A stretch of 64,000 bases of DNA from an uncultured delta proteobacterium (GCA_963760795.1 CAVXEP010000019.1:192001-256000); one strand, 5' to 3'. Counted from the stretch's first letter, positions 2,558 to 46,437 are shown. Program-made: numbers and translations. Notes: generated by a model not told the origin, from the letters alone.

Positions 2558-3641
2558 TTAGTCGCGGATATCCTGCAAAAACCAATCGGTGGGGATCTCT
2601 TGGCCGAGGCCGCGTTTTTTCGCTTCGCGGACGACCCAGCCGGCGGTGGAAGCGAACTGCAATCCTTGGGTGCCGCTGTTGGCGAAGAACGTCACTTGAT
2701 TCTTGTCGGTGCGGCCTTTGAGCTTGCCGGACATGATATCGGTGAGCAGCGGATAGTCTCTGGAAAAGATGTCGACCTTCGGATTGACGATGCGCTTGAT
2801 CTCTTCGGCGTTGCCGGCGACCACCGCGGCTTCGCCGCCGATGCGCAGTTGGCCGACATCGAGATTCAATGTCGGGCGGCCCATGCGAATCACTACGTCG
2901 GACTGCTTGACGATCTCGGGGCTCCACTCGTTGGCTTTGACGCAGGTGAGATGCATGCCGGATTCAATCAGATCGGGATCGCTGACCAAGACTTGGATCG
3001 AATCGGTGCAGGTGGCGACGATGTCCGAGCCGCGCAGGACTTCTTCCGGCTTGTCTACGGGATTGATTTCTACGCCTAATTTTGTGCCCATCTCTTCGGC
3101 GAAGGTTTCGCGATTCTTCTTGGTCGGGCTGTAGACTTTTACTTTGGCGATCTTGCGCACCTCGTTGAAGGCCATGAGATAGGTGCGTGCCATGCCGCCG
3201 GAACCGAAAATGCCCACGGTTTTGGAATCTTCGCGGGAGAGATACTTTACGCCGAGACCGGCGCAGGCGCCGACGCGCATATGTTGGATGATGCCGTCGT
3301 TGATGATCGCCAGCGGCTCGCCGTTCTTGGTCGAGAAAACCATGACGAAACCGCAGATACGTGCCGGGCTGGACGCAGTACTTTTCCACGGTCTTGCCGT
3401 CCGGCCACTCGAGCATGTCGGACTTCATTCTGATGGCAAAGGTCTCGAAGGAACGCGACGCGCCTTCCATGGTGCCCCATCGATACATCAGCTTGGGATC
3501 GTCATTGGGCACGAAGAAGTCGTAGCGGCCGCGGTAGTTGGCCCGTTCGTTGACCAGGTCGCGGTAGCCGGTATCGAGGGCTTCGATGCAGCCCTTCATG
3601 TCGAGAATTTGTTCGACGACTTGGTTATTGATCAGCAGCAT
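2558..3641 (-). CDS. Ornithine cyclodeaminase/mu-crystallin family protein; apparent frameshift at ~3356
   Basis: ORFs 2964-3641 and 2558-3343 join as KYCVQPGTY-CGFVMVFS, matching KYCMQPGTWCGLVMVFS in the intact paralog at 59420. Rossmann motif GIFGSGGMA. Repaired length 360 aa. Confidence 0.88.
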
Positions 3642-23899: not shown

Positions 23900-25639
23900 A
23901 TGGGGCGATTGTGGCAATATTTGCGGCGCTATTGGCGGCGTTACCTGATTGGCGGGCTATGTCTGCTCGGCACCGCCACGCTGGTCATGGCGATCCCCTG
24001 GTGGACCCGTGAAGTGGTGCGCATCATCGAGCAGGGCGGCTCGCTCAGCGACGTGCGCTTTTACGCCTTGCTGATCATCGCGGCGGCGGTCCTCCAGGGT
24101 ATCGTGCGCACCTATTCGCGGGCATTGATCTTCAACGCCGGCCGCGATGTCGAATACGATCTGCGCAACGATCTGTTCGCGCACTTGGAAAAGCTGCCGC
24201 TGGCGTTTTATCAAGCCAACCGCACCGGCGATCTGATGTCGCGGGTGATCAACGATATTTCCGCCGTCCGCGTCATGCTCGGTCCCGGCGTGCTCAACTT
24301 CGTCAACGCGCCGGTGTATTACGTCTACGCGGTGATTCTCATGCTGTCGATGGATGTGCGTATGACCTTGGCCGCTCTGGCGCCGTTTCCGTTGTTGATG
24401 ATTGTCGCCCGCGTTTTTCGCGGCAAAATCATGAAAAGCTCCCTGGAAGTGCAGCAGCAGATGTCGGTACTGAGCAGCCATGTGCAGGAAAATTTGAGCG
24501 GCATGCATGTGGTCAAAGCCTATTCCCAGGAAGACTTTCAAACCCAGCAGTTCATCGGACTCAACAAAGACTATGAAGTCAAAAGCATGCAGATGGCCAA
24601 GATGCGCGGCATCGTCAACCCGCTGATGCAGGGGATTAACGGGCTGACCGTGTTGATTGTCATCTGGTACGGCGGCGTGCGCGTGTTGCGCGGCGATTTA
24701 CTGGTCGCTGACATCGTTGCCTTTATAGCTTACTTGAACGTGCTCGCGTGGCCGACGGCGGCCTTCGGCTGGATGCTTTCGCTCGTCGAGCGCGGCCGGG
24801 CGGCGATGCGCCGGCTCGAAGAAATTCTCGCGACCGAACCGGCGATTGCCAGCCAAGCGGCGCCGTTGCCGGTTCAGGGCCTCAAGCAGGGCATGGAATT
24901 TCGCAACGTCGCGTTTGCCTACAATGGCCAACGCAACGGTCACGCGGCCATCGAAGGTATCAGCTTCAAACTCCCCGTCGGCAAGTCGGTCGGATTGGTC
25001 GGCCGCATCGGTTCGGGCAAGAGCACCGTCGCGCAATTGGTACCGCGGCTGTTCGATGCCAGCAGCGGCGAGATTCTCTTAGATGGGCAGCCGCTCACCG
25101 AGCTGCCGCTCTCGGAACTGCGCCGGATGATGGGCTATGTGCCGCAGGATCCGTTTCTGTTTTCGACCACGCTGCGGCGCAATATCGCGCTGGGCCGCGA
25201 GGAGTACAGCGAAGCGGAGCTTAATCGGGCGATCGCGATCGCCAAGCTCGACCGCGATTTGGCAATCTTTCCCAAAGGTTTGGATACCCTGGTGGGCGAG
25301 CGCGGCGTGACCCTTTCCGGCGGGCAAAAGCAGCGCGCGACCTTGGCGCGGGCGTTGATCATGGACTCGCCGGTGCTGGTTCTCGATGACTGTCTTTCCA
25401 GTGTCGACGCTCAGACCGAAGCGGAGATCCTCGCCGGGCTGCGGACGTTTCTCAAGGAAAAAACCTGCCTGATCATTTCGCACCGTATTTCCGCGGTGAA
25501 AGAGGCCGATGAGATTCTCGTGCTTGACGACGGCAGGATCATCGAGCGCGGCGATCACGAAGCCTTGGTGCGCCGGGGCGGCGTCTACGCCGATCTGTAC
25601 CAGCAGCAACGCTTGAGCGAGGAGCTCGAACAAATCTAA
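23900..25639 (+). CDS. Heterodimeric ABC exporter subunit A (TMD-NBD)
   Basis: GRIGSGKST, LSGGQKQR, and degenerate Walker B VLDDCLS. Confidence 0.92.
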   Translation: MGRLWQYLRRYWRRYLIGGLCLLGTATLVMAIPWWTREVVRIIEQGGSLSDVRFYALLIIAAAVLQGIVRTYSRALIFNAGRDVEYDLRNDLFAHLEKLPLAFYQANRTGDLMSRVINDISAVRVMLGPGVLNFVNAPVYYVYAVILMLSMDVRMTLAALAPFPLLMIVARVFRGKIMKSSLEVQQQMSVLSSHVQENLSGMHVVKAYSQEDFQTQQFIGLNKDYEVKSMQMAKMRGIVNPLMQGINGLTVLIVIWYGGVRVLRGDLLVADIVAFIAYLNVLAWPTAAFGWMLSLVERGRAAMRRLEEILATEPAIASQAAPLPVQGLKQGMEFRNVAFAYNGQRNGHAAIEGISFKLPVGKSVGLVGRIGSGKSTVAQLVPRLFDASSGEILLDGQPLTELPLSELRRMMGYVPQDPFLFSTTLRRNIALGREEYSEAELNRAIAIAKLDRDLAIFPKGLDTLVGERGVTLSGGQKQRATLARALIMDSPVLVLDDCLSSVDAQTEAEILAGLRTFLKEKTCLIISHRISAVKEADEILVLDDGRIIERGDHEALVRRGGVYADLYQQQRLSEELEQI

Positions 25640-27453
25640 TGGCCCAAGCCGCACAGCAAGAAGACGTCCTCGGTAAAGCCTATGATCTGCGCCTGATCCG
25701 GCGCTTGTGGAAGTTCATCATTCCCTACAAGCGGCTGTTTTATCTCACCATGCTGCTCTTGCCGCTGCAGCAGGCTTTCGGCGTCGCCCAGCCGTATTTA
25801 ATGAAAATCGGCATCGACCAGTATATCGCCGGCAAGGATCTCTGGGGTTTGCAGAACGTCATGCTGCTTTTCCTCGCCGCGCTGATCGGCGAGACGGTGG
25901 CGGCGTTTGCGCACCATTACTTTTCAATGTTAGTGGCGCAGCGTTGTTTGGCGGACATGCGCGCGGCGGTGTTCGCCCATGTGCAGAAATTGCCGATGAG
26001 TTATTTCGACCGCAATCCGGTGGGCCGTTTGGTGACGCGCATGACCACCGACGTCGACGTGCTGCAGGAGATGTTTTCCTCCGGTGTCCTGACGCTGGTG
26101 TCCGACCTCATCATGGTGGTGTGGATCGTCAGCATCATGTTCTATCTCAACGTTGGCTTGGCGTTGGTGTCCTTGGCGTTGATCCCGCCGATGATGTTCG
26201 CGATTAATTTTTTCCGCGTCAAGGCACGCCAGAACTACCGCCAGATCCGCGAGCGCATCGCCAGGGTGAATGCCTATCTAGGAGAGGCGATTTCCGGCAT
26301 GATGGTCATCCAGCTGTTCTCCCGCGAGACCAAAACCTATCGCGAGTTCGAAGCGCTTAACGCCGATCATCGCGATGCTTACCATCTGTCGAACAGTTAC
26401 GAGGCCGCACTCTATTCCATGGTCGAAGCCGCTGGCTCGGTGAGCCTGGGGCTGTTGCTCTGGTACGGCGGCGGCGAGGTCTTGCATGGCATCATCGGCA
26501 TCGGCACGGTGGTGGCCTTCAAAGAATACGTGCACCGGTTCTTTGTGCCGATGCGCGATTTTAGCCAGAAGTACGCGGTCATGCAGTCGGCGATGGCATC
26601 GGCGGAGCGGATTTTCCAACTGCTCGACACCGAGGTCGATATTCAAAACCCGAAAAACGCCGTGGTGCCCAAGCCGTTTCGCGGCGAAGTGGTCTTCGAT
26701 AACGTTTGGTTTCACTACAAGGCCGGCGATCCGGTGTTGAAAGGCGTCTCGTTTCGCATCGCGCCTGGGGAAAAAGTCGCCGTCGTCGGCGCTACCGGAT
26801 CGGGCAAGACGACCACCATCAAGCTGCTCAACCGCTCCTACGATATCCAACAGGGCTCGATCAAAGTCAGCGGCGTCGATGTGCGCGAGTGGGATTTACA
26901 CGCCTTGCGCCGCCATATCGGCGTGGTGTTGCAAGATGTGTTTTTGTTTTCCGGCGACGTGCGCGGCAACCTGATCTTGGGCGATCCGTCGGTCTCCCAG
27001 GAACGCGTCGAACAAGCGGCCAAGCACGCCAACGCCGATCAGTTCATTCGCCGGTTGCCCGACGGCTATCTTGCCCAGGTGCGCGAACGGGGCAGCAATT
27101 TTTCCGTTGGCCAACGCCAGCTCTTATCGCTGGCGCGGGTGCTGGTTTTCGGCCCGGAAATTTTGGTGATGGACGAGGCGACCTCCAGCGTCGACACTGA
27201 AACCGAAGCGTTGATCCAAGACGCTCTGGATAAAGTCATGCGCGACCGCACCTGTCTGTTGATCGCGCACCGGCTGTCGACCATCCGCAACGCCGACCGC
27301 ATTATCGTCCTACACCATGGCGAAGTGCGCGAGATGGGTTCTCACGCCCAGCTGATGGACAAGCGCGGCATCTATCATCGCCTGTACCAATTGCAGTACG
27401 AGCGCGAAGAGTTGAAGCTCACCATCCATGCCGACTCCAAGGTAGTTGCCTAA
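25639..27453 (+). CDS. Heterodimeric ABC exporter subunit B (TMD-NBD)
   Basis: GATGSGKTT, degenerate signature FSVGQ, and consensus Walker B MDEATS. TAATG coupling to subunit A. Confidence 0.92.
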   Translation: MAQAAQQEDVLGKAYDLRLIRRLWKFIIPYKRLFYLTMLLLPLQQAFGVAQPYLMKIGIDQYIAGKDLWGLQNVMLLFLAALIGETVAAFAHHYFSMLVAQRCLADMRAAVFAHVQKLPMSYFDRNPVGRLVTRMTTDVDVLQEMFSSGVLTLVSDLIMVVWIVSIMFYLNVGLALVSLALIPPMMFAINFFRVKARQNYRQIRERIARVNAYLGEAISGMMVIQLFSRETKTYREFEALNADHRDAYHLSNSYEAALYSMVEAAGSVSLGLLLWYGGGEVLHGIIGIGTVVAFKEYVHRFFVPMRDFSQKYAVMQSAMASAERIFQLLDTEVDIQNPKNAVVPKPFRGEVVFDNVWFHYKAGDPVLKGVSFRIAPGEKVAVVGATGSGKTTTIKLLNRSYDIQQGSIKVSGVDVREWDLHALRRHIGVVLQDVFLFSGDVRGNLILGDPSVSQERVEQAAKHANADQFIRRLPDGYLAQVRERGSNFSVGQRQLLSLARVLVFGPEILVMDEATSSVDTETEALIQDALDKVMRDRTCLLIAHRLSTIRNADRIIVLHHGEVREMGSHAQLMDKRGIYHRLYQLQYEREELKLTIHADSKVVA

Positions 27454-27824
27454 GAAGTTAGACTTTTACTTCCGGTCTGGAACAGTGCTGCATCTTCGGT
27501 ATCACAGAATTTGGCGCCAGGCTGCTAAACAAATTCAGTAAACCCGCCGATTGCCGTGGTGAGATGGCGTGTTTGATCGCCCACTAAATTCAACGCCGCA
27601 TAGAGACTTGGCCGACGCGGATGCTCCTCAATCGAGCGGCGACCTCAATCTGCAATAGTCCACGAAAACGTTTGAAGTTGTTAGGCAAGCATCGGCCCGA
27701 CTGAATCCGCCCCCTTCTCCCATGTACACCGATTGCTAGCCTCACGCACAGCAAAATCGATTACATAGAATCGCCTGGGTCCTTTTTTCTGGGTGCGTGT
27801 CTCTCGATATACGCTGTGACGTTT

Positions 27825-29129
27825 TTATTGTTTGATATCTCGCGGCGCGCTTTTCCTTAGTAACGAGGCGAGAAGCTCAAGGCGCTCCTTCGAAAGATTC
27901 TTGAGCGCGGATGACGAACGATCGCTCTCGCGGGCGTACGCGTCTTGCTTTACCGCAGGCACAGCAGCCAGATTTTCCAGATATTCCTCAACCGGCGCGA
28001 TCGAAAGCTTCGAAACATAGTTCTCTGCGGCCTCCCGGGAGGCTGTAGATAGCTCGTCGTAATGCTGCCGATCAGAGAGAAGTCGCTTCAACGCGTCGAG
28101 CCAAGGCCGAATGTCTTGCTCGGGGACGAACGGGACTGGAAGCATCTGGTCATCTCTGTGCGTTTGGTATCGCGCGATGGGTTCAACCGGCAAGAGATAG
28201 TCCACACCTAGTTTTGCTTCGGGTAGGCCGCCCAGATTGCTAGCCAAGACCGGAATTCCTCTGAGCATCGACTCGACGACGATCTTGCCAAAGGCTTCCC
28301 CCCAGAGCGATGGCACCAGCATAATGCGGGTCCGGGCAAAAATCTGATCTATATCCTCGGTCGGCTGAAGCATCTCTACATTAGGAAATTGTTTTAGGGC
28401 AACCCGGTCGGCAGCGGTGGTAGCCCAAGTCGGCACAGCAGCAAACTTTTCCGCAGGTAATGCGCGCGCCAGCTCTAAAAAGATGGCAATTCCTTTGATC
28501 GCCGACGGGTTGACCATCGTAATGAAGGGGTTATCCAATGATCCGAAGTAGGGCCACGGGGGGTTCCCGAAAACCGGCAAGGAAATGGCGACCGAGTTCA
28601 GGCCGCCCCACTTAAAAATATAACTCTTCAGGTAATTGCTGACCGCTATGATTCCGGCCGTTCGTTGGAGCATTTCTGCTTTCAATGGATCTGGCGAAAA
28701 ACACTCTGGACCGAAAGGCAGAGTTGCCTGGCTGTGCGATAGAAAAACAACACGCCCCGGCACGCTCTCCAGGGCAGCCGCAAGGGCGAGATAACTAGGA
28801 TCCTCGGATATCAAAATCCAATCCGGCCTAAACTCTTCAGCTTGCTTCAGAAGCTCGCCGCAAAATTGACTGGGGTCGGCGAGTTGGTGAACCTGAACGC
28901 CATGGAGATCAAATTTCTCGGCCAAAGGCGAGAATCCCGCATGGGTCGGATCCAATGACTCGTTGCGCGATCCGCGGCGCGGCGCGAAATGTGTTGCGGT
29001 GTGCGACAACGCGAGGACTCTGCACAGGTGGCCTCTTCGGCTAAGATATTGCAGCAGCTCGCGGTTCGATTTTGCTGCCCCGGTCCATGTCGGTGAATAG
29101 GATAATTTCTGCGCCAGAAATATTTTCAC
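27825..29129 (-). CDS. Glycosyltransferase family 4 (GT-B) with a C-terminal docking-like tail
   Basis: TGAAKSNR, AVSNY, NPSAIKG, PSLWGEAFGKIVVESMLRGIPVLASNLGGLPE. Tail LKNLSKERLELLASLLRK. Confidence 0.9.
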   Translation of the reverse strand: MKIFLAQKLSYSPTWTGAAKSNRELLQYLSRRGHLCRVLALSHTATHFAPRRGSRNESLDPTHAGFSPLAEKFDLHGVQVHQLADPSQFCGELLKQAEEFRPDWILISEDPSYLALAAALESVPGRVVFLSHSQATLPFGPECFSPDPLKAEMLQRTAGIIAVSNYLKSYIFKWGGLNSVAISLPVFGNPPWPYFGSLDNPFITMVNPSAIKGIAIFLELARALPAEKFAAVPTWATTAADRVALKQFPNVEMLQPTEDIDQIFARTRIMLVPSLWGEAFGKIVVESMLRGIPVLASNLGGLPEAKLGVDYLLPVEPIARYQTHRDDQMLPVPFVPEQDIRPWLDALKRLLSDRQHYDELSTASREAAENYVSKLSIAPVEEYLENLAAVPAVKQDAYARESDRSSSALKNLSKERLELLASLLRKSAPRDIKQ

Positions 29130-29142
29130 GAATACGCCACAC

Positions 29143-31341
29143 TCAGTCCTGGCTGTGATCTTCCCTGGTTAGCAGCGATTTAACCTGATCATCGGATAGT
29201 CCTTCGATTTTCTTCAAAACGACATCAAGTTCATCGACGCTGGCGGCATCTGCTTGTGCCATTAGAATCTCTCGGCAGAGTCCGCCGATAGTAAGTTTAG
29301 TCGTAAAGAATAGTCTCACTGGGAGCTCAACGCCCAAATCTTTTCGGATGCGGGAGAGAACCTGCATACCGAGAAGTGAGTGACCTCCCAAATCGAAAAA
29401 GTTGTCATCGACGCCAATACGCTCCAATCCCAGCAGTTCCGACCACATGTGAGCCAGACGGTTCTCGAGCGGAGAACGCGGCGGCACGAACGGCACGACC
29501 TCCCGCGGCAGAGGACGGCGCGTTTGTAAAACCACGCGGTGGATTCTTTCGGCGTCGTTAAGTTCAATGGCAATAGAACTCAACAGCGACGCCTTTTCTC
29601 GGGCACCTCGCGTATCGGCGGCAATGACCGAAGACTCCTCGTCCTCGGCGGTCGCCGCGGTGATTGTCGCCGCCTCCTGTGGCCGGTATTCGATGGCCGC
29701 CGCATACACGGCGGGAAATTTGAAAAGATAACCTCCGTCAATTGTTTCCTTCAAATCCGCGCCGACACTCTCCAAAAACTCCAATGCGGGGCGATTTTTC
29801 TTGGTTTGGAGATAGCGCACTTCGACTCGATCGAAATCTCGCTGCATAGCAATTTCGCCTAGTCTCGACAGCAGGCGATGCTCTACGCCTTTGCCGAGAG
29901 CGCGGCAACTCAGCAGGAAGGTGTCCACGAGAATGCAAGCAACGGCTCTAAAAATAATTGCGCCAACGAGACCATAGTCGCCAAACCGATCTCTCAGGTT
30001 TACGGTGAGACACTCTGCGTCTTCTTTTTGACAGAGACTCTGAATTTCGCTCTCGGAACGTCGCTGGGTCGTACAGTTAAACTGGTTGGTTCTCTGGGTT
30101 AATTCCGCCACGCGGGGAATTTGACGCGTCACCAACGGCGCAATCTCGATTGTCAGATCGAGACCCGCTAGGAAATCGCTAAAACTAAGCGATGCCTTAT
30201 GAAAACTCGCCCGCTCGGAACTCTGTTTATACGCTAGATTGCGTTGTTGTCCTTCGGCGGTGACTTTGAGATGATCAAAGATCCACAGATGCGATAAAAA
30301 CTGCCCCGCCTGCTCGGGGTCCCGCGGAACTTGGAAGGTCAACACTTCAGGGCAGTGCGATTGCACTTCCGCGCACTCGACGGGATCGTCATCGAGAAAG
30401 ATGAAACTGTCGGCGCCGAGGTTCAACTCCTGTGCTAAAGCTCTGATGTTTTCCGATTTTTGCCGCCAATTGATTCGCCGGGCGACAAAATGATCGAGTT
30501 TCAAAGGCATATCGGAGCGATTTGTAAATACCTCGACGACATCAGCCTCATTGTTTTTGCTGCACAAACAAAGGAGCATTCCGGCATGATATTGTTCGAG
30601 CAGGAACTCTTGGATTTTCTTCCATGGCGGAGTTATCGCTATGCCAGCCGCGCCATCTTCGCCGCATACCCCGCCCCAGAGCGTCTGATCGCAATCCAGC
30701 ACGATTACCTTATAGGGGTCGCTCGTAAGGGTGTAAATTTTACGCGCGAGCATTGTCGCCAAGGCGCTGAAGAATAATGGCGTGAACGGGATATGCGCTA
30801 ACCTGTCACTGTCAGGATCATAATATTCCGCTACCGGATAGCAGGCGAATAGTTCAGCCGGCGTAATGACGTGGACTCCGGGTATTGCTTGCAGCTCGGT
30901 CTGCAGCGACGCGACTATATCTTCGACAAATCGTTTTCTCTCCGGGTCCATCACAACCGCCGGTGACGCCGGACATAAACAGACGAGCTGCGGCGTCGCC
31001 GAACGCTCGGCGGCGGTTGTAACGGCGCGCGCAAAGTCGCGCGCGTCACGTTCGAGCGCCGGAAACGACAGTTCGGCAGCTTGACGCCCTGCGGCACTCT
31101 TTTGCCAGTCTTCAAAGCCTACCAGAATAATATTGACACCCGTGCGGTTGGTGGCGAGCAAGCTAGACGGATCGACGAGTTGTTGAAATACCTGGTTGTA
31201 CGGCGCAAAAGTGATCCGCGCCGGTATCTGGAGTTCCTCCAGCCAGAAGGTCAGCGGTCGCTCGAGCGGCTCTGCTGTAAAGGTAGCTGTGATCGCGATC
31301 GTTTGCTCTGCGTTCCGAGTATCCAACTCATCATTCAACAT
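29143..31341 (-). CDS. FkbH-like (HAD-IIIC) glyceryl transferase fused to a phosphopantetheine carrier domain
   Basis: N-terminal ATFTAEP...FAPYNQVFQQL; HAD motif VLDCDQTLWGG; SKN; FLDDDP; RTNQFN; DRFGDYG; LLSCRALG. Carrier motif DDNFFDLGGHSLL. Start reassigned to ATG at 31341. Confidence 0.92.
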   Translation of the reverse strand: MLNDELDTRNAEQTIAITATFTAEPLERPLTFWLEELQIPARITFAPYNQVFQQLVDPSSLLATNRTGVNIILVGFEDWQKSAAGRQAAELSFPALERDARDFARAVTTAAERSATPQLVCLCPASPAVVMDPERKRFVEDIVASLQTELQAIPGVHVITPAELFACYPVAEYYDPDSDRLAHIPFTPLFFSALATMLARKIYTLTSDPYKVIVLDCDQTLWGGVCGEDGAAGIAITPPWKKIQEFLLEQYHAGMLLCLCSKNNEADVVEVFTNRSDMPLKLDHFVARRINWRQKSENIRALAQELNLGADSFIFLDDDPVECAEVQSHCPEVLTFQVPRDPEQAGQFLSHLWIFDHLKVTAEGQQRNLAYKQSSERASFHKASLSFSDFLAGLDLTIEIAPLVTRQIPRVAELTQRTNQFNCTTQRRSESEIQSLCQKEDAECLTVNLRDRFGDYGLVGAIIFRAVACILVDTFLLSCRALGKGVEHRLLSRLGEIAMQRDFDRVEVRYLQTKKNRPALEFLESVGADLKETIDGGYLFKFPAVYAAAIEYRPQEAATITAATAEDEESSVIAADTRGAREKASLLSSIAIELNDAERIHRVVLQTRRPLPREVVPFVPPRSPLENRLAHMWSELLGLERIGVDDNFFDLGGHSLLGMQVLSRIRKDLGVELPVRLFFTTKLTIGGLCREILMAQADAASVDELDVVLKKIEGLSDDQVKSLLTREDHSQD

Positions 31342-31361
31342 TGGCTCTTTGCTCCATCGAT

Positions 31362-32861
31362 CTAGGCGATGTGACCTGACCATAAATATGCAGCGGCCTT
31401 ACTGCCTTCGAGCTGGTGCACCGTCACCAGGCGTCCGACAACGGCTTCGGCGAGGGCGACGCGTGGATACCGGCCCTGTGGCCCGGAGCCGGAAGCACGG
31501 ACGTTTTTAGCGCCGGCGAGATTGACCCAAAAGGGATCATCTTCGGTCCTCGGCTTATCCGGGCCGACCATACGGCGCAGCGCGGCAGCGCTGCGCCAGC
31601 TTGCGGCTCCAACGGCAACCCAGCATTGGTAGCGGTCGGTATTAGTCGTTAAAGTCAAAAACGCGTGAGGTCGCACGGCTTCGACTGCCTGAGAATCGAG
31701 TTGATCGACCATTACTAACAACGGTTCGCCCGGCCGGTCATTGGTCAGAGGCCGGATCATAACATTCAAGTTCCGATTATCTGCAGCTTGCAAATGCGCT
31801 GGCAATCTCTCGAATAGTTGGTCGGGATCTAAAGCGGCTTCGGAAGCAAGCAACTCGCCGGAATCAGTCGTCAGCAACAAGTCAAATCGATCCTTGTCGA
31901 CGGATAAAAACAGCGCAATGATGAGCTGCGCCTGCTCCAAGCAGGAGCGGGAATCGGTCGGTGCAGTTGCGCTGATGTTGAGACCGGTCATCAGGCGACG
32001 ATGCCCTCGGGCCCAGCGTGAAGTTGTGTGATCCGCTTCGGGTTCAGTCTTGTCTGTGAAGAAGCGCACGGTCGTGACGTTCCACTTTTGATTAAAATGC
32101 TGCACTGTCCTCAGGTTCCAAGCTTCACTCCAGCGCAACATAAAATAGGCTAGATCCGACTCTTCACAAGCAGGCGGCGGAATGTAGCTGGTGACCGCCG
32201 TCGGCTCGATGTATACCGCTCCTCCGGCCTTTTGCACTTCCAAACACAGGTCAATGTGCTCTTGGTGGCTCAATAACTTTTCATCCAGCGGGCCGAGTTT
32301 CGCGAATACGTCCGTGCGCACCAACATGCAATGGAATTCTGCGTAGTCCCAAACGCTTCTTTGAAGCGGCACTTCTAGGTTAGCCATGGGAGTATCGAAA
32401 CGATATTGCTCGTCGTAAAGCACTCGGTGCCCTTGTTGCTCCGTGAATTTTAAAATTCCGCCAGCCATGTGGATCTTCTGGCGCTCGATCTCGCCAAAAA
32501 GATAAAGCGGGCCGACCACCCATGCTCCGGTTTCTTCGGCGCATTGCACTAAAGCCTCGAGCCAACCGCGTGTGACTAGCGCATCATTGTCCAAGAAGAC
32601 GAGGTATTCGGTGCTGACCTCTCTCAAGCCGAGATTTCGCGCTTGGTTAGGCGATAAAAACCGGTCCGAGTGAATAAGCGTGAAGCCCTTTGATTCCGCC
32701 TGGGCCGCGATCCGATGGTACATAGGTTTCGGCGTGCCGGCGCTGACATAAATCAGTTTGAAGGGAAGTGTCGTTTCCTGGTAGACGGTTTCGAGGGTGC
32801 GCTCACTATGGCTGAAACGCTCCCGCGGTACGATCACGATGGTGACTTGTGGCTCTGACAT
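31362..32861 (-). CDS. Glycosyltransferase family 2 fused to a RepB-type primase-like C-terminal domain
   Basis: Residues 1-260 are GT-A (VTIVIVPRER, ARNLGL, VFLDND, EHIDLC). Residues ~309-486 contain NVMIRP, LVMVDQL, FLTLTTNTDRYQCWV, NLAGAKN and YPRVAL. Confidence 0.82.
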   Translation of the reverse strand: MSEPQVTIVIVPRERFSHSERTLETVYQETTLPFKLIYVSAGTPKPMYHRIAAQAESKGFTLIHSDRFLSPNQARNLGLREVSTEYLVFLDNDALVTRGWLEALVQCAEETGAWVVGPLYLFGEIERQKIHMAGGILKFTEQQGHRVLYDEQYRFDTPMANLEVPLQRSVWDYAEFHCMLVRTDVFAKLGPLDEKLLSHQEHIDLCLEVQKAGGAVYIEPTAVTSYIPPPACEESDLAYFMLRWSEAWNLRTVQHFNQKWNVTTVRFFTDKTEPEADHTTSRWARGHRRLMTGLNISATAPTDSRSCLEQAQLIIALFLSVDKDRFDLLLTTDSGELLASEAALDPDQLFERLPAHLQAADNRNLNVMIRPLTNDRPGEPLLVMVDQLDSQAVEAVRPHAFLTLTTNTDRYQCWVAVGAASWRSAAALRRMVGPDKPRTEDDPFWVNLAGAKNVRASGSGPQGRYPRVALAEAVVGRLVTVHQLEGSKAAAYLWSGHIA

Positions 32862-33264
32862 AATAAAAGACTCAGTTATCGGCCGATCCCGTTACAGCTC
32901 ATTCCGAGCGTCTTCCATCCTTTTACAGAATCTGACCGGCGGAATTTCGGTCCTGACTTGTTTGTCCTGTCGGTTGCGGTTTCTGCTTTTTTACAACACC
33001 AGCATTATCATACATTATCCACGGTTCAGCCAACAGCCGATACGTTATCGGCAGTCGATGGAGCTTCGGCGGTGGCGGGCTCAGACTTTATATTCTTGAC
33101 AGACTAAACCAAATCGCCGGCCTGCCGGTCGGAAAAGCATGACGCTGACGAAATCATCGTCGAAACCTCTCGATCCAAACAGCTCGCGACGTCTTTAAAG
33201 CTCATAGATGAAATCCAGGGTGTTGTTCGCTCATCGGTGGCCGCTGGCACAACCCGAAAATCGA

Positions 33265-34287
33265 TTAAGCTAATTGATTCTCGGTTTTTCCCAAGCCAAA
33301 AGTCTCCGCCAGCAGTTCGTAGGAACGGTGGCGCGGAGCGGGATCGTAAGTCCATGTGACCACGACCAGTTCGTCGAGGTCGAGACTTTTCGCGAGTTCT
33401 TTCAGTCGAGTGGTGACCTGTTCTGAAGATCCGACAATCGCCTTGCGATGTAACTTTTCCGCGATCGCCAATTCGGCGGGCGAATACGGGCGATTTGCTT
33501 CCTCCGGCGACATCAGCGGCTGGCGGATGCCAAGTTTGCGGTCGATCATGGCGCGTTCGCGGGATTTGAACTGGAACAGTGCCTCCTCCTCGGTATCGGC
33601 GGCCAGCGCCCAGACGCAAATCGTGCAGATCGGCTTGGGATTGTTTTCGCTGGAGCGATAATTCTTGCGGTAAAGATCCAGCGCCTGCTCGACGCCAAAG
33701 CCGTCGCTGAAGAAGTAGGCGAAGGCGTAGGGTAAACCAAAATAGGCGGCAAGTTGCGCGCCGTAGTCTGAGCTGCCGAGAATCCACATCTCCGGCGTGG
33801 TCGGTCCCGTCGGTTGGGCGACGATTCTCTGAAACGGATGACCTTCGGGCAGGGGTTTCCCGGACACCCAGTGTTGCAGCTCCTGGACTTGCCGGGGAAA
33901 TTGATCATGGACATTCTGCGGGTGCGGATTGAGAGCGTGGGATGTCAATTGATCCGATCCGGGTGCGCGGCCGACACCCAGGTCGATACGGCCCGGCGCA
34001 ATGGCGTCCAGGACGCGGAACTGCTCTGCAACTTTCAGCGCCGCATAGTGCGGCAGCATCACGCCGGCGCTGCCGATACGGATACGCGGCGTGGTGGCGG
34101 CGATCGCCGCCATGAGTATCTCGGGGGCGGTGCCGACGATATTACCGGAGTTGTGATGCTCCGAGACCCAGTAGCGATGGTAACCCAGCGCGTCGCAATG
34201 TCTCGCGAGATCCAGGGTCTCACGGATCGCATTGCCCTGCGCTCGGCCCTTGGCCGCGGTCGATTGATCGAGTACTGACAGCTTCAT
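33265..34287 (-). CDS. LLM-class flavin-dependent oxidoreductase (luciferase-like)
   Basis: MKLSVLDQS, YWVSEHHN, RIGSAGVMLPHY, GRIDLGVGRAPG, WILGSS. Start ATG at 34287. Confidence 0.93.
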   Translation of the reverse strand: MKLSVLDQSTAAKGRAQGNAIRETLDLARHCDALGYHRYWVSEHHNSGNIVGTAPEILMAAIAATTPRIRIGSAGVMLPHYAALKVAEQFRVLDAIAPGRIDLGVGRAPGSDQLTSHALNPHPQNVHDQFPRQVQELQHWVSGKPLPEGHPFQRIVAQPTGPTTPEMWILGSSDYGAQLAAYFGLPYAFAYFFSDGFGVEQALDLYRKNYRSSENNPKPICTICVWALAADTEEEALFQFKSRERAMIDRKLGIRQPLMSPEEANRPYSPAELAIAEKLHRKAIVGSSEQVTTRLKELAKSLDLDELVVVTWTYDPAPRHRSYELLAETFGLGKTENQLA

Positions 34288-34388
34288 GGATGACCTGCTT
34301 GTCGGGCACAGTTTATTGTGAATTTGTTGGGAAGAGCATTCATCACGAATGATACTGTGCGGCAAGCCCGCAACCAAACACCGGAATA

Positions 34389-34488
34389 TCTCGCGCCAAG
34401 CTCGCAAAGACCGCCAAGTTATGAGATCAAATCTCCTTGGGGCCTGGGGTTGGGAGGCCTTTGCGTGCTTGGTGCACTTGGCGTGAGA
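34389..34488. repeat. Intergenic inverted repeat built from ~9-bp periodic CGC(A/C)AAG units
   Basis: TCTCGCGCCAAGCTCGCAAAGACCGCCAAG ... CTTTGCGTGCTTGGTGCACTTGGCGTGAGA. Confidence 0.7.
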
Positions 34489-34498
34489 AATTCCTCTG

Positions 34499-35413
34499 TT
34501 AGCCGAGCCGATCGCCGATGTTTAATCCCGCCTGTTTGGCAAATTCCGCGCCGCTGACTTTGGCGCCTGTGCCGCGAGCTTTCTTTATCGTCAGCGCGCC
34601 GCCATTCAGCGCGACGGTAATTCCTTCTCCACCGATGGCTGTCACTTGTCCAGCGGCCGCTGAATTCGGCCCGGCTTGCAGCCTAGCATCGAAGATGCGC
34701 ACCATCTTGCCTTGCCAATTCGTGTGCGCGCCGGGTTGGGGGTCGCAGCCGCGGATTAGGTTGTAGACTTCCTGCGCCGGTTTGGACCAGTCGATCTTGG
34801 CATGAGCGTCGTCGCAGATGGGGTCGTAATTGGCCTTGGATTCGTCTTGAACGATGCGCGGCGGGTTGCCGGCTTTGATGAGATCCACCGCTTCGCCGAT
34901 CGCTTCGATGCCCAGGGGAAATATTTTGTTGAAGTACAACGATCCGGTGGTGTCGTCCGGCTCGACCTTGACTTCTTTTTGCAACAGGATCGGCCCGGTA
35001 TCGATGCCTTTGTCGACCCAAAATAGCGAAAGTCCGGTGACCGATTCGCCTTTGATCAAGGCCCAGTTGATGGCGCTGGCGCCGCGATACTTGGGCAAAA
35101 GCGACGGATGAAAGCAGATGCTGCCGAGTTTTGGCACGCTGAAAACTTGCTGCGGGACGATCTGGGTGACGAAAGCGAGGATCGCTAGATCGGCGTTCAA
35201 CGCGACGAATTCGTCGCACACTTCCGGCGCTTTGAACGATTTAGGCTGTCGCACCTCGATGTGGAGATCGATGGCTTTCTGTTTTACCGGGTCGAATTTG
35301 CCGTTGGGCGGATCGGGCGGGCAATAGACCGCGACCACTTTCTCGCCTTTGCCAAGGAGTTTTTCCAGAGTCTTTTCGGCAAACGCCGCTTGTCCGATCA
35401 ATATTATTCGCAT
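34499..35413 (-). CDS. Fmt-like formyltransferase / 10-formyl-THF hydrolase-like protein
   Basis: MRIILIGQAAF, CFHPSLLPKYRGASAINW, GIDTGPIL, IDWSKPA.EVYNLIRGCDP.PGA. Confidence 0.85.
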   Translation of the reverse strand: MRIILIGQAAFAEKTLEKLLGKGEKVVAVYCPPDPPNGKFDPVKQKAIDLHIEVRQPKSFKAPEVCDEFVALNADLAILAFVTQIVPQQVFSVPKLGSICFHPSLLPKYRGASAINWALIKGESVTGLSLFWVDKGIDTGPILLQKEVKVEPDDTTGSLYFNKIFPLGIEAIGEAVDLIKAGNPPRIVQDESKANYDPICDDAHAKIDWSKPAQEVYNLIRGCDPQPGAHTNWQGKMVRIFDARLQAGPNSAAAGQVTAIGGEGITVALNGGALTIKKARGTGAKVSGAEFAKQAGLNIGDRLG

Positions 35414-35478
35414 TTGGTGAAACTCCGATACAGTAGAGCTAGCGCGTTACGAAGACGAGCCACGATCGCGATTTCTCG

Positions 35479-36006
35479 TTAGCCGATGATTTTAAAGTCG
35501 CCGCCCTTGTAGCTCCGGCATAGATTGACGTAGGTGGTTGAGCCCATCTTGATCCAGTGCAGCGCTTCGCCGGTAATTTCCTTCTTGACCTTGGCGGGCG
35601 CGCCGGCAGCGAGCACTCGAGGCGGGATGATCGTGTGCGGCGTTACCACGCTGCCGGCGCCGATCAGGGCTTCTTCGCCGATCTCGACATGTTCGAGCAG
35701 GGTGACGTTCATGCCGATGATCGCGCCGCGCTTGACCAGCGGACCTTCCATGATTGCGCCGTGGCCGATGGTGCAATCTTCTTCGATGATCGTCGGCGCT
35801 TCGCCGGAATGAATCACGCAGTTGTCTTGCACGCTGGTGCGGGCGCCGATGACGATGGGATTGGCGTTTTGATCCGAGCGCAAGACCGCGCCCCACCAGA
35901 TGCTCGCTTCGTCGCCGATGGTTACATCGCCGATGATCACTGCGGTGGGCGCGATGAACGCCGTGGGAGATACATGCGGTCGTTTGCCTTTGTATTCGAT
36001 GATCAT
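35479..36006 (-). CDS. Gamma carbonic anhydrase-like (left-handed beta-helix) protein
   Basis: AFIAPTAVIIGDV, VLRSD, SVQDNCVIH, hexapeptide repeats, GAPAK. Confidence 0.9.
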   Translation of the reverse strand: MIIEYKGKRPHVSPTAFIAPTAVIIGDVTIGDEASIWWGAVLRSDQNANPIVIGARTSVQDNCVIHSGEAPTIIEEDCTIGHGAIMEGPLVKRGAIIGMNVTLLEHVEIGEEALIGAGSVVTPHTIIPPRVLAAGAPAKVKKEITGEALHWIKMGSTTYVNLCRSYKGGDFKIIG

Positions 36007-36139
36007 GAAGAGCGATACCTCCGTGGATAAGTTTCACGATATTGGACGCTGCCCGGGGAAATCAAGATTGTTGGTGCAATGTCGCGAGTGTGGATTGACT
36101 CGATTGGTAAAATTGTTAATGCTTTGCCAACTTTGAAGA

Positions 36140-36180
36140 CCCTCAACCTAGCCCTTGCCCGCATGCCCGGGCGAGGGGAA
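36140..36180. repeat. REP-like hairpin
   Basis: CCCTCAACCTAGCCCTTGCCCGCATGCCCGGGCGAGGGG resembles CCCTCACCC...GGGAGAGGG-type REPs. Confidence 0.5.
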
Positions 36181-36217
36181 AGGATTAGCAGAGCGGTCGA
36201 TACCTATTGGAGGTTAG

Positions 36218-37291
36218 ATGGTGAAATATTTTCGTTGTCATTGCGATTTCACTTTGGTCACTCATCGGTGCAGTGGACGTCTCGCTCGCGCAGACCCGCG
36301 AGGCGACTCTCGCGGCGCTGGGAAAACTTCCCAGCCGCCGAGCGCCAGGCGCGTTTGGTCGAGGGGGCGAAGAAGGAGAATGGGCTGGTTTGGTACTCGA
36401 GCACGACGGCGGAAGACGCGCTGGCGCTGAGCAAGAAATTCAATGAGCAGCATCCGGCCATCAAGATCAATCATTTCCGCTCGTCCAGTGAGAAGTTACT
36501 CGAGCGGATTCTCGCCGAGTCCCGCGCCAATGCGTTCAAAGCCGACATCGTAACTCTACCCGAGTTGGAACTGTCGCTGATGATCAAGCGTAAACTATTA
36601 CTGCGCTACGAAGCCGTAGAGAATTCTTTCTATCCCGCCGAGACCAAGGATCCGCGCGGCTTTTGGACCGGGCTCTACACTTCGGCGTGGGTGCCTGGCT
36701 ACAACACCAAGCAGGTGGCCAAGGATCAGGCGCCGCGGACTTACAAAGATCTGCTCAACCCCAGGTGGAAGGGCAACATGGCGATGGATAACGAGCCTTT
36801 CAACTGGTACGTGATCTCGCTCAATTACTTGGAAAAACGCGACGGCAAGGAGGCCGCGGCCAACTACATGAAGCAACTGGCGGCGCAGCAGATGCAGTGG
36901 CGCAAAGGCCATTCGTCTGATCGGCCAGTTGATGGCGGCGGGCGAGTTTCCCCTCGCCGCCGAGCTGCAAGTGCACACGGTGGAGCGCGCCAAAGCGACC
37001 GGCGCGCCGGTCGAATGGTCGGTGCTCGACGGCGTGATTCCGATTTCGAAAGTCGGCGCGGCGGTCACCAGTACCGGCAACAGTATTTACACTTCGGCGC
37101 TGTTTTTTGATTTTCTCTTGTCCCGCGGCGGCATGGAGACGATCCGCGCGAGCCGGCGGATCCCGACGCGTCCGGATGTCACAGCGCCGTACTTAAAGCC
37201 GTACAAACTCATCCCATTCGAGCCCCAGGCGATCGACGACTTCGACAAATACGTGACACTGTTCCGCGATACCTTCAAGCCGGGAAACTAA
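36218..37291 (+). CDS. Extracellular solute-binding protein (Fe3+/thiamine-type SBP); three apparent frameshifts at ~36227, ~36331 and ~36917
   Basis: Removing three single bases gives MVKIFVVIAISLWSLIGAVDVSLAQTREATLAALGKLPAAERQARLVEGAKKE...YNT...DLLNPRWKG...KGHSLIGQLMAAGE, 356 aa. GGAGG RBS. Confidence 0.8.
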
Positions 37292-44752: not shown

Positions 44753-46437
44753 CTACTTGCACCCGTGCGTTGAGGCCCCGCTGAGTTCAATCACGCGTGT
44801 AATTTCGTCGGTTGCTTGCGGTGTCGTGCTGAGCAGTTGGGCTTTGAACTGAGTGTCGCGAGCGCCGCGGTGGAGTGCGGCGCTCGCCTGACGTTCGTAC
44901 CAGCCGGGCGGCATCAGGCAAAGCACCGGCGGCTTGAGACGCTGGGATGCGCGTTTCTGAGCGTATTCGATATTGAGCTGGGCAAGGTTTTGATCCAGCG
45001 CGGCGAGCAATTGCCTGAGCGCGTCGTCGCTTGGATTCGCGCCGTCGAATTCGATTGGGAATGAGTAGCGCGATTCTTCCGCGTCGGCGATTCCGCGGTA
45101 GTGTCGCGGCGTGATACCGGCGAGCGCTTGCGCCAGTTCCATCGCCTGGATGACCTGATTGACGTGGAGTTTCTCGCCGGTGATGTTGGTGAAATCGCGG
45201 CCTTTGCGGACAAATTCGAGCAGCGGGGTTTGCCGAAAGAATCCCGCGACGCGCACCACATCGTTGATATCGTAGCGGTACAAACCGCCTGGCGTGGTGA
45301 GGATGAGATAATAACTCTCGCCGGTTTTCAATTCCGCGCAGGTCAGCGTTGCCGGTTGTGGACTGTCGATTTCCGCTTCGGGAATGAACTCGTAAAAATT
45401 GCCGTTCAAATCAGGGATGCCGGCGAACCCGGAGTCGGATATCGGCAAGGTCATCTGCGCCTCGCTCGCCATATAGCCTAAATCGCGCACCGGCATGGAC
45501 TCGCCGAACCAGCGGTGCAGTTCATTCAAGCGCACACCGACCGTGCCGCCTTTCCAGCAACCGATCAATTGCAGTTGTGGCCAGTAATCCATGGGACGCA
45601 GGGCGCCGTATTGGTTCGCCAGCCGTTCGAGCTCGAGCCGCGCGGGCGGGATTTTTCTCGAGTTGCGCTGCGAGCTTTTGCCGCACCGCGCCGGGAATAT
45701 GCCAGCGCTCGCTGATGGTGCCGTCGCGAATGTCGCGGATGATTTCAGATTTATTATTGTCGGCGATTTCGACCAGGCGCAGAATCGTGCTCGGATTGGG
45801 CGTGCCGAGAAACGAGATTGGCTGCGCCAACGCCAACACGCATGATCAGGTAGTACTTGGCGGCGAAGTCTTTCACTTCGGCGACCTCGTAGGGTAGGGC
45901 GAAGGCGTTCTGAATCCAGCGTGGACTGCTCTGATAAATCAAGCCTGAGGCGGCGCCGTAGGGAATATTGCCGGCGGTTTTCCCTTCTTGGGCGGAACTG
46001 ACGACGCCGAGCATTTTGCCGTCGAACAAGCCGGGATGATCGAGGTTGGCGCGGTAGTACCAAAGGCGCGTAAGTCGACGGTGGTTGGCGCGGCTGTTCT
46101 CGGTCACCGGGATCAGCTTGGGTGCGCCGGTGCTGCCGCTGGTCAGCGTGAACATCTCGACTGGCGCTTCGGTCAAGACCTGAGCTTCGCCATTCTCGGC
46201 ACGCTCGACATAGGGGCGAAGCCGTTCATAGTCGCCAATGGCGACCCGCTCGCGGTAGTCCGCCAAGCTGCGAATCGCCGCGAAGCCATGATCCTTGCCA
46301 AAGGCGGTTCCGCGGTTGCGCTGAATGATGTCGAGCAATAGCCGGTTTTGCACCGTTGCCGGAACGGCGGACAATTTTTCCCAGCTGCTCCAAAGACGGC
46401 CGGTGACGAAGGCCGCTGCTTTGACGATCACGCTCAT
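44753..46437 (-). CDS. GH3-family acyl acid-amido synthetase; two apparent frameshifts at ~45837 and ~45638
   Basis: TAFGKDHGF, FTLTSGSTG..KLIP, GYMASE, FYEFIP, GLYRYDINDVV, TGEK. Repaired length 560 aa. Confidence 0.88.

Follow-up and report, generated by a model that had tools for sequence, protein, structure and literature searches.

Enzymes of the FkbH/OzmB type form glyceryl-acyl carrier protein (ACP) for the methoxymalonyl-ACP and tetronate pathways. Glucosylglycerate and mannosylglycerate arise by carrier-free routes, in which GpgS and MpgS use free 3-phosphoglycerate or glycerate, and carrier-bound glycerate is reportedly esterified during vioprolide biosynthesis. Here we describe a three-gene cassette at positions 27825-32861 of a 64,000-nt stretch of DNA from an uncultured delta proteobacterium (GCA_963760795.1, CAVXEP010000019.1:192001-256000; hereafter the window, at its full length). 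The cassette encodes a fusion of FkbH to a peptidyl carrier protein (FkbH-PCP) and two glycosyltransferases (GTs), one of family GT4 and one of family GT2, the latter fused to a domain that resembles RepB'-type primases.

The closest described systems are those in which glycerate is modified while bound to a carrier. For suomilide and varlaxin, the available text of two reports proposes that AerB/BslA load glycerate through FkbH onto a PCP and that the glycerate is O-methylated and sulfated on the carrier (PMC10143770, PMC13122637). The window protein is similar in that FkbH is followed by a PCP and in that the bound glycerate would be tailored before hand-over, and most of the related loci described below are likewise in line. 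It differs in the predicted glycosylation by GT4, which that text does not describe, and in being free-standing, with no condensation (C) domain nearby. For myxoglucamides, the available part of one report suggests an early glycosylation that is integral to the assembly line but that acts on a fatty-acyl unit and without FkbH (PMC13638107).

We propose that the three genes constitute a working thiotemplate module that makes glycosylated glycerate on a carrier and that was probably acquired horizontally, a reading that we hold at about an even chance. Glycerate loading by FkbH-PCP is known. By comparison of the sequences, what is apparently new here is the dedicated in-line glycosyltransferase, the domesticated primase domain and the lack of a release enzyme in cis. 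A literature search found no paper on the FkbH-PCP/GT4 pair or on the GT2-RepB fusion, a provisional result as subscription journals lay mostly outside the search.

Organization of the cassette and its FkbH-PCP and GT4 proteins

The three co-oriented genes lie on the minus strand and encode, in order, the GT2 protein with the RepB'-like domain, FkbH-PCP and GT4. The genes and the features of the latter two proteins are as follows.

31362-32861, minus strand: GT2 glycosyltransferase with RepB'-primase-like C-terminal domain, 499 aa
29143-31341, minus strand: FkbH-PCP, 732 aa from M15, comprising FkbH_N, the HAD-IIIC/FkbH core, a peptidyl carrier protein and a conserved tail
30727-31341, minus strand: FkbH N-terminal domain, residues 1-205 of the 732-aa protein
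29752-30711, minus strand: FkbH core with HAD motif DCDQT and the acyl-transfer Cys in LSCR (TIGR01686, residues 225-544 of the 746-aa reading frame)
29269-29460, minus strand: PCP domain with the phosphopantetheine-attachment Ser in GGHSL (PF00550, residues 642-705 of the 746-aa reading frame)
29170-29208, minus strand: post-PCP tail motif IEGLSDDQVKSLL, candidate docking element for the GT4 partner
27825-29129, minus strand: GT4 (GT-B) glycosyltransferase, 434 aa, GTG start
28272-28298, minus strand: EX7E motif (E278...E286), from the GT4 alignment
27852-27896, minus strand: C-terminal basic helix-like motif LSKERLELLASLLRK, consensus LSPEKRALLALRL, from the GT4 alignment

The longest open reading frame (ORF) of the middle gene spans 29143-31383 and encodes 746 aa. 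The predicted start is most likely M15, at 31341, which yields a protein of 732 aa, because the homologues are 724-732 aa in length and a GGAG is found 13 nt upstream of the ATG. More specifically, 14 of the 15 best full-length homologues fall in this size range, at 98% query coverage. With a start at 31341, the intergenic gaps are therefore 20 nt and 13 nt. An earlier note on this DNA, made from the sequence alone, had described three co-oriented genes with gaps of this size, lying between an ABC exporter pair and a luciferase-like oxidoreductase (LLM) gene and flanked by 370-400 nt of non-coding DNA. The layout was as described: the flanks measured 371 and 403 nt, and the domain scan identified both neighbours.

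The FkbH-PCP protein matched the FkbH model TIGR01686 at 305.1 bits (cut-off 146.65) over model positions 4-321 of 323, and the PP-binding family PF00550 at 58.8 bits (gathering threshold 20.8). The N-terminus of the window protein yielded no Pfam match even at E <= 10. An Atlas search with a homologue that is 51% identical, P0053, led to clusters of PF21211, FkbH_N, with a feature score of 0.95 and structural TM of 0.74-0.88, and this N-terminal region was found in 78 of the 79 related loci described below. In FkbH enzymes, HAD motif I has the form DxDxT and a conserved Cys carries the glyceryl group. The translation contains VLDCDQTLW, LLSCRALG and GGHSL, and residues D216, D218, T220, C479 and S655 (732-aa numbering) are invariant across 25 aligned FkbH-PCP relatives, in keeping with the earlier note, which had judged DCDQT, LSCR and GGHSL to be intact. 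The HAD part matches PDB entry 3slr. The closest solved carriers to the PCP are those of nonribosomal peptide synthetases (NRPSs), namely PvdL, LgrA and TycC. Relatives of the protein numbered 4298 at E <= 0.001 among 8000 scored candidates; P0005 and P0244, 88% identical, are labelled Binatia, and P0245 is labelled Limisphaerales; by these labels, the source of the window is probably itself one of the Binatia.

Like the FkbH/OzmB-type enzymes, the window protein scores above the curated FkbH cut-off and possesses the HAD DxD motif and the transfer Cys, and it is expected to form a glyceryl thioester from 1,3-bisphosphoglycerate. By contrast, in place of a discrete ACP it has a PCP of the NRPS type, fused and extended by a tail, and its partners are two glycosyltransferases rather than products of FkbI/FkbK-type, FkbG or FabH-like genes. 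We scanned 55 ORFs of the 64-kb window with Pfam (3 + 23 + 29; at least 150 aa, plus one of 97 aa). Families corresponding to FkbI/FkbK-type dehydrogenases, the FkbG methyltransferase or 3-hydroxyacyl dehydrogenase partners were not present among these ORFs. The same scan found no C, adenylation (A), ketosynthase, thioesterase (TE), FabH-like, acyl-CoA dehydrogenase or ACPS/phosphopantetheinyl transferase (PPTase) family, which agrees with the earlier statement that the window has no condensation, ketosynthase, thioesterase or FabH-like gene.

The GT4 protein matched PF13692 (39.2 bits, cut-off 27), PF00534 (38.1 bits, cut-off 26.4) and PF13439 (31.8 bits, cut-off 28.5). It contains an EX7E motif, which we take to be a mark of the GT4 family. 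Among 29 aligned relatives, E278 of this motif is invariant and E286 occurs in at least 90%; K212, G213, G300, G301 and E304 are likewise invariant. The C-terminal LSPEKRALLALRL motif is kept at the ends of standalone GT4s and directly before a fused C or TE domain, and is absent from the only fusion to an FkbM methyltransferase in the alignment. The window GT4 ends where other standalone GT4s end and is therefore not a truncated fusion. Neither the GT4 nor the GT2-RepB protein contains a hydrophobic 19-residue window (Kyte-Doolittle value >= 1.6), and both read as soluble.

The best-scoring NCBIfam names for the GT4 protein were BshA (34.9 bits, cut-off 273.7) and MshA (28.7 bits, cut-off 462.5), each matched over the nucleotide-sugar-binding stretch only. 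BshA structures were also among its weak PDB matches. BshA and MshA resemble the window protein in being small-acceptor GT4s, but the scores are far under the family cut-offs, and membership in either family was ruled out.

Related loci and the proposed pathway

We compared the cassette with 79 related loci, kept from 599 matching stretches in species-representative genomes. Their FkbH-PCP proteins are 38-55% identical to that of the window; Binatia relatives at 80-94% identity are not among these loci. According to blastp and tblastn, a full-length GT4 orthologue (37-55% identity) directly follows FkbH-PCP in 25 of the 79 loci. In one further locus, L018, the orthologue is truncated at the contig end, bringing the GT4-linked total to 26. 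In the other 53 loci, FkbH occurs mostly inside NRPS lines, arranged as C-FkbH-T (T, thiolation domain), as FkbH-T-TE, or as FkbH-T followed by C-A-T.

The fusions of the GT4 orthologue are informative. By Pfam, it is fused to a TE in L015, L005, L063 and L026, and to an FkbM methyltransferase in L027 and L021, with L022 having a separate FkbM gene. In L001, L006 and L044, it forms part of a GT4-C-A-(MT)-T protein (MT, methyltransferase), placing it exactly between FkbH-PCP and the next module. Searches with domain exemplars in phmmer counted 12 TE fusions and four C fusions. These fusions to TE, FkbM and C-A-T are hard to explain otherwise and therefore argue that GT4 acts in line, on the carrier-bound glyceryl group.

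Neither a C nor an A domain was present in 20 of the 26 GT4-linked loci, from ~7 kb upstream to 9 kb downstream; the six loci with such a domain are L001, L002, L006, L044, L066 and L078. Therefore, homologous cassettes do not always lie inside large NRPS clusters, a possibility that the earlier note had raised against its own proposal of a minimal carrier-tethered pathway to glycosyl-glycerate. Together with the number of GT4-linked loci and the fusions, this result supports that part of the proposal: a minimal carrier-tethered glycosylation pathway is likely, as judged from the loci compared. The link to nucleic acids that was part of the same proposal is unlikely and is taken up with the RepB'-like domain.

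In Acidobacteriota, the gene order is uniform: FkbH-PCP, a distant GT4 paralogue (GT4a), then a GT4b-TE fusion. The large genes that flank these cassettes are unrelated housekeeping genes, coding for proteases, TonB receptors, MacB, histidine kinases and a tRNA synthetase. A Paludibaculum locus, L029 (3710-8495), looks like a decaying acidobacterial cassette, with the FkbH-PCP tail out of frame and a first GT4 of just 210 aa. On plasmid NZ_CP107920.1 of Streptomyces sp. NBC_00441 (L080, 80804-87727), an ACP, an EryCIII-like GT, a GT4, a TE and an FkbH-carrier protein are encoded by separate genes, the GT4 and FkbH-carrier proteins being 40% and 38% identical, respectively, to those of the window. 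Near this set are rfbC and genes for a glucose-1-phosphate thymidylyltransferase, a nucleotide-sugar dehydrogenase, an epimerase/dehydratase, an MFS transporter and a GH38 enzyme. The cluster also occurs on a plasmid of Streptomyces sp. NBC_00209.

Overall, the recurring unit is an FkbH-carrier protein, a GT4, one further GT of variable family and a release enzyme. The window cassette resembles the acidobacterial cassettes and the Streptomyces plasmid cluster, themselves uncharacterised, in combining FkbH-PCP with an orthologous GT4 and one further GT and in having no NRPS nearby. It differs in two respects. The acidobacterial and Streptomyces sets carry a TE, either fused or separate, whereas the window has none; and their second GT is a GT4 paralogue or a GT1, whereas that of the window is a GT2 fused to a RepB'-like domain.

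Other loci placed the FkbH unit in further settings. In Paenibacillus algorifonticola NRS-1337 (L078, 13482-19052), FkbH-PCP and GT4 are directly followed by one 1856-aa C-A-T-TE-MFS protein, an unusual fusion of synthesis and export. Plasmid pOJF2_1 of Aquisphaera giovannonii (L082, NZ_CP042998.1, 20128-23139) has an FkbH-family gene for a 1003-aa protein, 48% identical over residues 11-690; its surroundings are annotated as a GT2, other GTs, dTDP-rhamnose genes, an ABC transporter pair, a WecB/TagA GT and an exosortase-family protein. This context suggests that glycerate from FkbH-PCP also enters glycans. In a Ralstonia plasmid record, FkbH occurs in a context resembling that of a polyketide synthase (PKS). 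Considering the NRPS, PKS-like and polysaccharide contexts, the FkbH-PCP unit therefore serves several kinds of pathway.

The region that follows the PCP tracks the GT4 partner. All 13 listed GT4-linked FkbH-PCP proteins contain its acidic tail motif, with consensus E(I/L)E.LSDEEV..LL; of 12 FkbH-PCP proteins with a C-domain gene next downstream, 11 do not. A strict pattern placed the motif after the FkbH domain in 23 of 25 GT4-linked loci versus 1 of 54 others. With a wider pattern, and L018 taken as GT4-linked, the 77 rows comprised 23 with both motif and GT4, two with GT4 only, two with the motif only and 50 with neither. The assignment of the tail as a GT4 docking element is a lead, not proof.

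The complete triad of GT2-RepB, FkbH-PCP and GT4 also recurs. Locus L002 is the only one of the 79 that has a GT2-RepB gene, and its gene order is that of the window, with identities of 57%, 50% and 55%. Equal lengths of the longest contig among the best 120 matches of each protein provide a proxy for linkage and a lower bound: by this measure, FkbH-PCP and GT2-RepB shared at least 21 contigs, FkbH-PCP and GT4 at least 13, GT2-RepB and GT4 at least 12, and all three at least five. On the contigs shared with GT2-RepB, all 21 FkbH proteins and all GT4 proteins are unfused. Close relatives at 68-96% identity retain the full lengths of 732, 499 and 434 aa, and the triad was seen under the names Binatia, Rokubacteria and Chloroflexota. 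The GT4 tree unites the window protein with two Binatia copies, the L002 protein and four further GT4s from contigs shared with GT2-RepB in a single clade (Shimodaira-Hasegawa-like approximate likelihood-ratio support of 96; 9 rows), separate from the GT4s fused to TE, FkbM or C domains. The L002 GT4 is identical over 400 compared residues to a protein labelled Rokubacteria. From these comparisons, the triad reads as a coherent, vertically maintained cassette type.

We propose the following pathway for the window cassette. Given the known chemistry of FkbH and the intact motifs, FkbH would take 1,3-bisphosphoglycerate, remove phosphate and load a D-glyceryl thioester onto its own C-terminal PCP. 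The gene fusions, the synteny and the tail motif together suggest that GT4, recruited via the post-PCP tail, would then glycosylate a glyceryl hydroxyl on the carrier. As the combination of FkbH-PCP, GT4 and one GT of variable family recurs, the GT2 enzyme may add or extend a second sugar. The predicted product is a mono- or di-glycosylated glycerate derivative. Its release would occur by hydrolysis or by transfer involving a factor whose gene lies elsewhere; conceivably, the RepB'-like domain would assist. In the acidobacterial and Streptomyces versions, the TE would set the glycosylated glycerate free; where the locus is NRPS-linked, a C domain would hand the unit to an amino acid.

A more ambitious form of this proposal, which we consider rather doubtful, is that the triad suffices on its own. 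It would then be a protein-templated route to glycerate-primed glycosides or short oligosaccharides built on a carrier-held glyceryl thioester, and the domesticated primase domain on GT2 would be a carrier-docking or release/hand-off element that replaces the TE of the acidobacterial and Streptomyces sets. If true, such a triad would be the carrier-based counterpart of the glucosylglycerate-type primers of free-substrate pathways. Were the thioester hydrolysed, the class of product would be like that of the GpgS and MpgS routes; the difference is that the known routes use no carrier protein.

Several observations weigh against a working module of the kind that we propose. The 64-kb window encodes no TE, C domain or PPTase, so that a complete pathway is not evident in cis. 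The GT2-RepB protein is present in just one of the 79 loci, and its link to FkbH-PCP otherwise depends on the contig-matching proxy. In the FkbH tree, the window protein falls outside the GT4-linked clade, with its placement not resolved. The association between the tail motif and GT4 was not significant when assessed on the tree, which provided only three independent pairs, as a single acidobacterial clade contains 19 of the GT4-linked loci. What is proposed on the order of glycosyl transfer, on the sugars and on release comes from inference, as does every functional statement beyond family membership. Finally, L002, the one triad-bearing locus, is flanked by a divergent PPTase gene, a C-A-T-TE gene and a downstream A-T gene, and the window has no such genes.

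The flanks of L002 bear on a different explanation of the window cassette, namely that it is the loading and tailoring module of an NRPS line encoded elsewhere in the genome. A C domain acting in trans would take the glycosyl-glyceryl starter to yield a glycosyl-glyceroyl amino acid or peptide. The fusions of GT4 to C-A-T in L001, L006, L044 and L066 are consistent with this explanation, as are the C-A-T-TE-MFS protein that follows GT4 in L078, the NRPS type of the PCP and the location of most of the other 53 loci inside NRPS lines. We nevertheless consider it unlikely: the 55 ORFs scanned over 64 kb include no C, A or TE family, the region of deviating composition described below spans the three genes only, and 20 of the 26 GT4-linked loci are without a nearby C or A domain. 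A partner that acts in trans may still be encoded elsewhere in the genome. The description of the cassette as an orphan in the earlier note thus holds for the window, which contains no NRPS or PKS partner, but does not extend to the related triad in L002.

The RepB'-type domain of the GT2 protein

The GT2 protein contains two recognizable domains.

32160-32852, minus strand: GT-A (GT2) catalytic domain with DxD-type motif LDNDA, residues 4-234
31443-31904, minus strand: homologue of the RepB'-type catalytic domain (archaeo-eukaryotic primase superfamily), residues 320-473

The first domain matched PF00535 (47.8 bits, cut-off 23.3) over residues 20-133 and PF13641 over residues 4-234. In the DxD-type motif, D91 occurs in 37 of 40 relatives, and N92 and D93 in all 40. 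The best NCBIfam name was the mycofactocin glycosyltransferase MftF, at 64 bits, far under the cut-off of 280. Relatives of the GT2-RepB protein numbered 1607 at E <= 0.001; nearly all are ~500 aa in length, and full-length coverage extends down to 46% identity.

The C-terminus of the window protein had no Pfam match even at E <= 10. A profile built from 40 family members matched RSF1010 RepB' (3h25_A, 3h20_A) with an E-value of 1.5e-7 over RepB' residues 15-172. The family profile and RepB' have the motifs FD(I/L), (I/V)RP, (V/L)DDL, YQ(A/C)W and LAG in common, and seven of the 40 family members matched PF16793. In a phmmer search of the full library with window residues 300-499, 220 proteins were found at E <= 0.001. 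Besides fragments and full-length forms of the GT2 fusion, this set consists of RepB-family proteins. One of them, P0366 (E 5.7e-28), is 42% identical to the window domain and carries PF16793 together with the helical PF22448. An Atlas search via homologue P0132 led to RepB_primase clusters, with a feature score of 0.90 and TM of 0.47-0.58. By these comparisons of sequence, we identify the domain as a true homologue of RepB, and the label "primase-like" that the GT2 protein had received in the earlier note is correct as a statement of homology.

In the available text on RSF1010 RepB', priming requires D77, D78 and D134 as well as a helix-bundle domain, and R145 is likewise given a role (PMC8567376). 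The GT2-RepB protein ends 26 residues past the catalytic-domain match, and neither it nor any of the 40 family members showed a match to the helix-bundle domain PF22448. The equivalent of D77, D386, is Asp in 32 of the 40. At the position of D78 (387), 20 of 40 have Asp and the window protein has Gln; at that of R145 (447), 14 of 40 have Arg and the window protein has Asn. The D134 region is variable and is gapped in 10-18 of the 40 relatives. Only nine of the 40 retain the two Asp residues plus Arg or Lys. Because the helix bundle is missing and the catalytic residues are degenerate, the RepB'-like domain is unlikely to prime; it would instead be an exapted binding or scaffold module, with carrier docking, ligand binding or release as possible roles. 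In short, the window domain is homologous to the catalytic domain of RepB' (3h20, 3h25), with which it has motifs in common, but, set against what the available text describes, it is without the helix bundle, does not keep the catalytic Asp and Arg positions and follows a GT2 domain within one protein of a chromosomal biosynthetic cassette.

In a different 411-aa protein, P0505, a RepB_primase domain in which the two Asp residues and the Arg are retained is accompanied by a borderline match to the NRPS docking domain TubC_N (26.4 bits, cut-off 26). The match may be due to chance, or the protein may connect RepB-type domains to assembly lines in a second way.

The homology to RepB-type primases speaks for a reading in which the domain retains activity and nucleic acid is the substrate that the cassette modifies or primes, for instance by glycosylation or glycerylation of DNA, with a role in defence or in a mobile element. 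In addition, the window GT4 matched PF20706, "GT4 in conflict systems", at 23.3 bits (cut-off 26), a label that many of its homologues bear in precomputed Pfam, and the cassette is a compositional island. However, the Gln and Asn at the positions of D78 and R145, the gaps in the D134 region and the mere 26 residues after the domain all speak against priming. None of the three cassette proteins matched any family of PADLOC-DB 2.0 at E <= 0.001, a tblastn search of 72,556 plasmids with GT2-RepB gave no match, and no tRNA, flanking repeats, or integrase or relaxase genes were found around the cassette. We therefore regard a nucleic-acid role as highly improbable, and the tie to nucleic acids that the earlier note had suggested through the primase-like domain is not borne out.

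Setting of the cassette and significance

The composition of the cassette deviates from that of the window. Its GC content is 0.544 versus 0.577 for the window, and a value equally low was found in just 7 of 236 windows of the same length. At third codon positions, the GC content (GC3) of the three cassette genes is 0.595, 0.581 and 0.620, as compared to 0.750 ± 0.038 in 28 other genes. The impression, first formed by eye, that the genes are more AT-rich than their surroundings is thus confirmed by computation. The cassette is a compositional island whose deviation is sharply limited to three genes. Values intermediate between those of the cassette and the window mean of 0.75 were observed in the LLM, formyltransferase-like and solute-binding protein genes at 33265-37110 (0.68, 0.69 and 0.67, respectively), and the region of unusual composition may extend slightly past the cassette. 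The GC3 deviation fits acquisition by horizontal transfer, which is probable. Borders of a mobile element were not seen: no tRNA, flanking repeats, or integrase or relaxase genes were found around the cassette or among the window ORFs.

The deviating GC3 would also be expected if the cassette were a non-functional leftover of a larger, horizontally transferred cluster. The absence of a release enzyme or PPTase nearby and the out-of-frame tail and truncated GT4 of L029 point in the same direction. Arguing to the contrary, the three reading frames are open and their motifs intact, relatives at 68-96% identity are full-length, the triad recurs with unfused FkbH-PCP and GT4, and the window GT4 stops at the standalone end point. 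We consider decay of the window cassette to be very unlikely.

The cassette is bordered by the following features.

32862-33264, minus strand: upstream intergenic region, candidate promoter region of the cassette, 403 nt, GC 0.50
27454-27824, no strand assigned: convergent intergenic region from the end of the ABC exporter pair to the end of GT4, 371 nt, GC 0.51
23900-27453, plus strand: ABC exporter pair, neighbour of the cassette
33265-34407, minus strand: MsnO8-family LLM, neighbour of the cassette

The only ORFs that touch the flanks are one of 100 aa on the plus strand and one of 227 aa without a Pfam family. The upstream region contains one weak sigma-70-like site on the minus strand (33033-33004, 9/12 matches), and promoter-like sites were not enriched in the promoter/terminator scan (4 versus 3.1 expected). 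Terminator-like sites numbered 14 versus 6.7 ± 2.3 expected; 13 of these are within genes, and the remaining one is in the downstream gap on the plus strand, at 27552-27569. No convincing minus-strand terminator was found in 27454-27824. A search of 27300-33400 against Rfam gave no match above threshold, the upstream region being without any match, and a sub-threshold match inside the GT2 gene (19.6 bits, threshold 37) was taken as chance.

The further neighbours are a gamma-carbonic-anhydrase-like protein and a formyltransferase whose score is under the fmt cut-off. These two and the LLM were rejected as members of the cassette: the LLM was present in one of the 79 related loci (weakly), and the formyltransferase-like and gamma-carbonic-anhydrase genes in none. 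The adjacent ABC pair was likewise rejected as a dedicated exporter, because it is not conserved in the related loci, where only weak generic matches occurred in 11 of 79, and because its GC3 is native (0.78).

The ABC pair is also relevant to the idea that the cassette serves a cell-envelope glycan: the GT2 and GT4 enzymes would build an oligo- or polysaccharide, and carrier-bound glycerate would be its primer or a glyceroyl decoration. An exporter adjoins the cassette, GT2 and GT4 are families usual in polysaccharide synthesis, and the FkbH gene of A. giovannonii has polysaccharide/exosortase-type surroundings. This idea appears quite unlikely to us, as neither GT has a membrane segment, the native composition and poor conservation of the ABC pair argue against its involvement, and the GT4-TE and GT4-C-A-T fusions in relatives fit thiotemplate logic. 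Moreover, polyprenyl-phosphate transferase, Wzx/Wzy and ABC-2 genes were not found among the scanned window ORFs.

Two other regions of the window contain genes that appear to be disrupted. A GH3-family gene on the minus strand, at 44753-46437, apparently falls into two ORFs that overlap and differ in frame: the GH3 N-terminal domain is in ORF 45754-46437, and ORF 44753-46063 comprises GH3_M and GH3_C, with a weak match to the model of the lyso-ornithine lipid synthetase OlsH. The split may reflect a frameshift or an assembly error. The gene adjoins an enolase-superfamily gene, a haem-oxygenase-like gene and a gene for an LplT-acyltransferase-acyl-ACP ligase fusion (48357-51749), and this GH3/OlsH-like region may be a lipid-remodelling cluster. 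In the second region, the ornithine cyclodeaminase/mu-crystallin ORF at 2558-3343 (minus strand) covers only profile positions 92-295 of 314. It is overlapped by ORF 2964-3641, which has no family, making this a possible second frameshifted gene. A second ornithine cyclodeaminase/mu-crystallin copy, at 59420-60508, looks intact.

FkbH-PCP is known as a loader of glycerate for NRPS and PKS pathways. Here its partner is a dedicated GT4, a pairing that spans at least four phyla, namely Acidobacteriota, Chloroflexota, Bacillota and Actinomycetota, in addition to metagenome contigs of Binatia and Rokubacteria. In the GT2-RepB' fusion, a replication domain of mobile elements has clearly been recruited into a metabolic enzyme. 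Since Paenibacillus algorifonticola NRS-1337 and Streptomyces sp. NBC_00441 and NBC_00209 are cultured carriers, direct testing is possible. If GT4 acts on the thioester-bound glyceryl group, it would provide an example of glycosylation on an assembly-line carrier, for which the literature search gave no precedent with glycerate, and the loci described here would represent a widespread class of small pathways of soil bacteria whose products are glycosylated glycerates or their amides and peptides.

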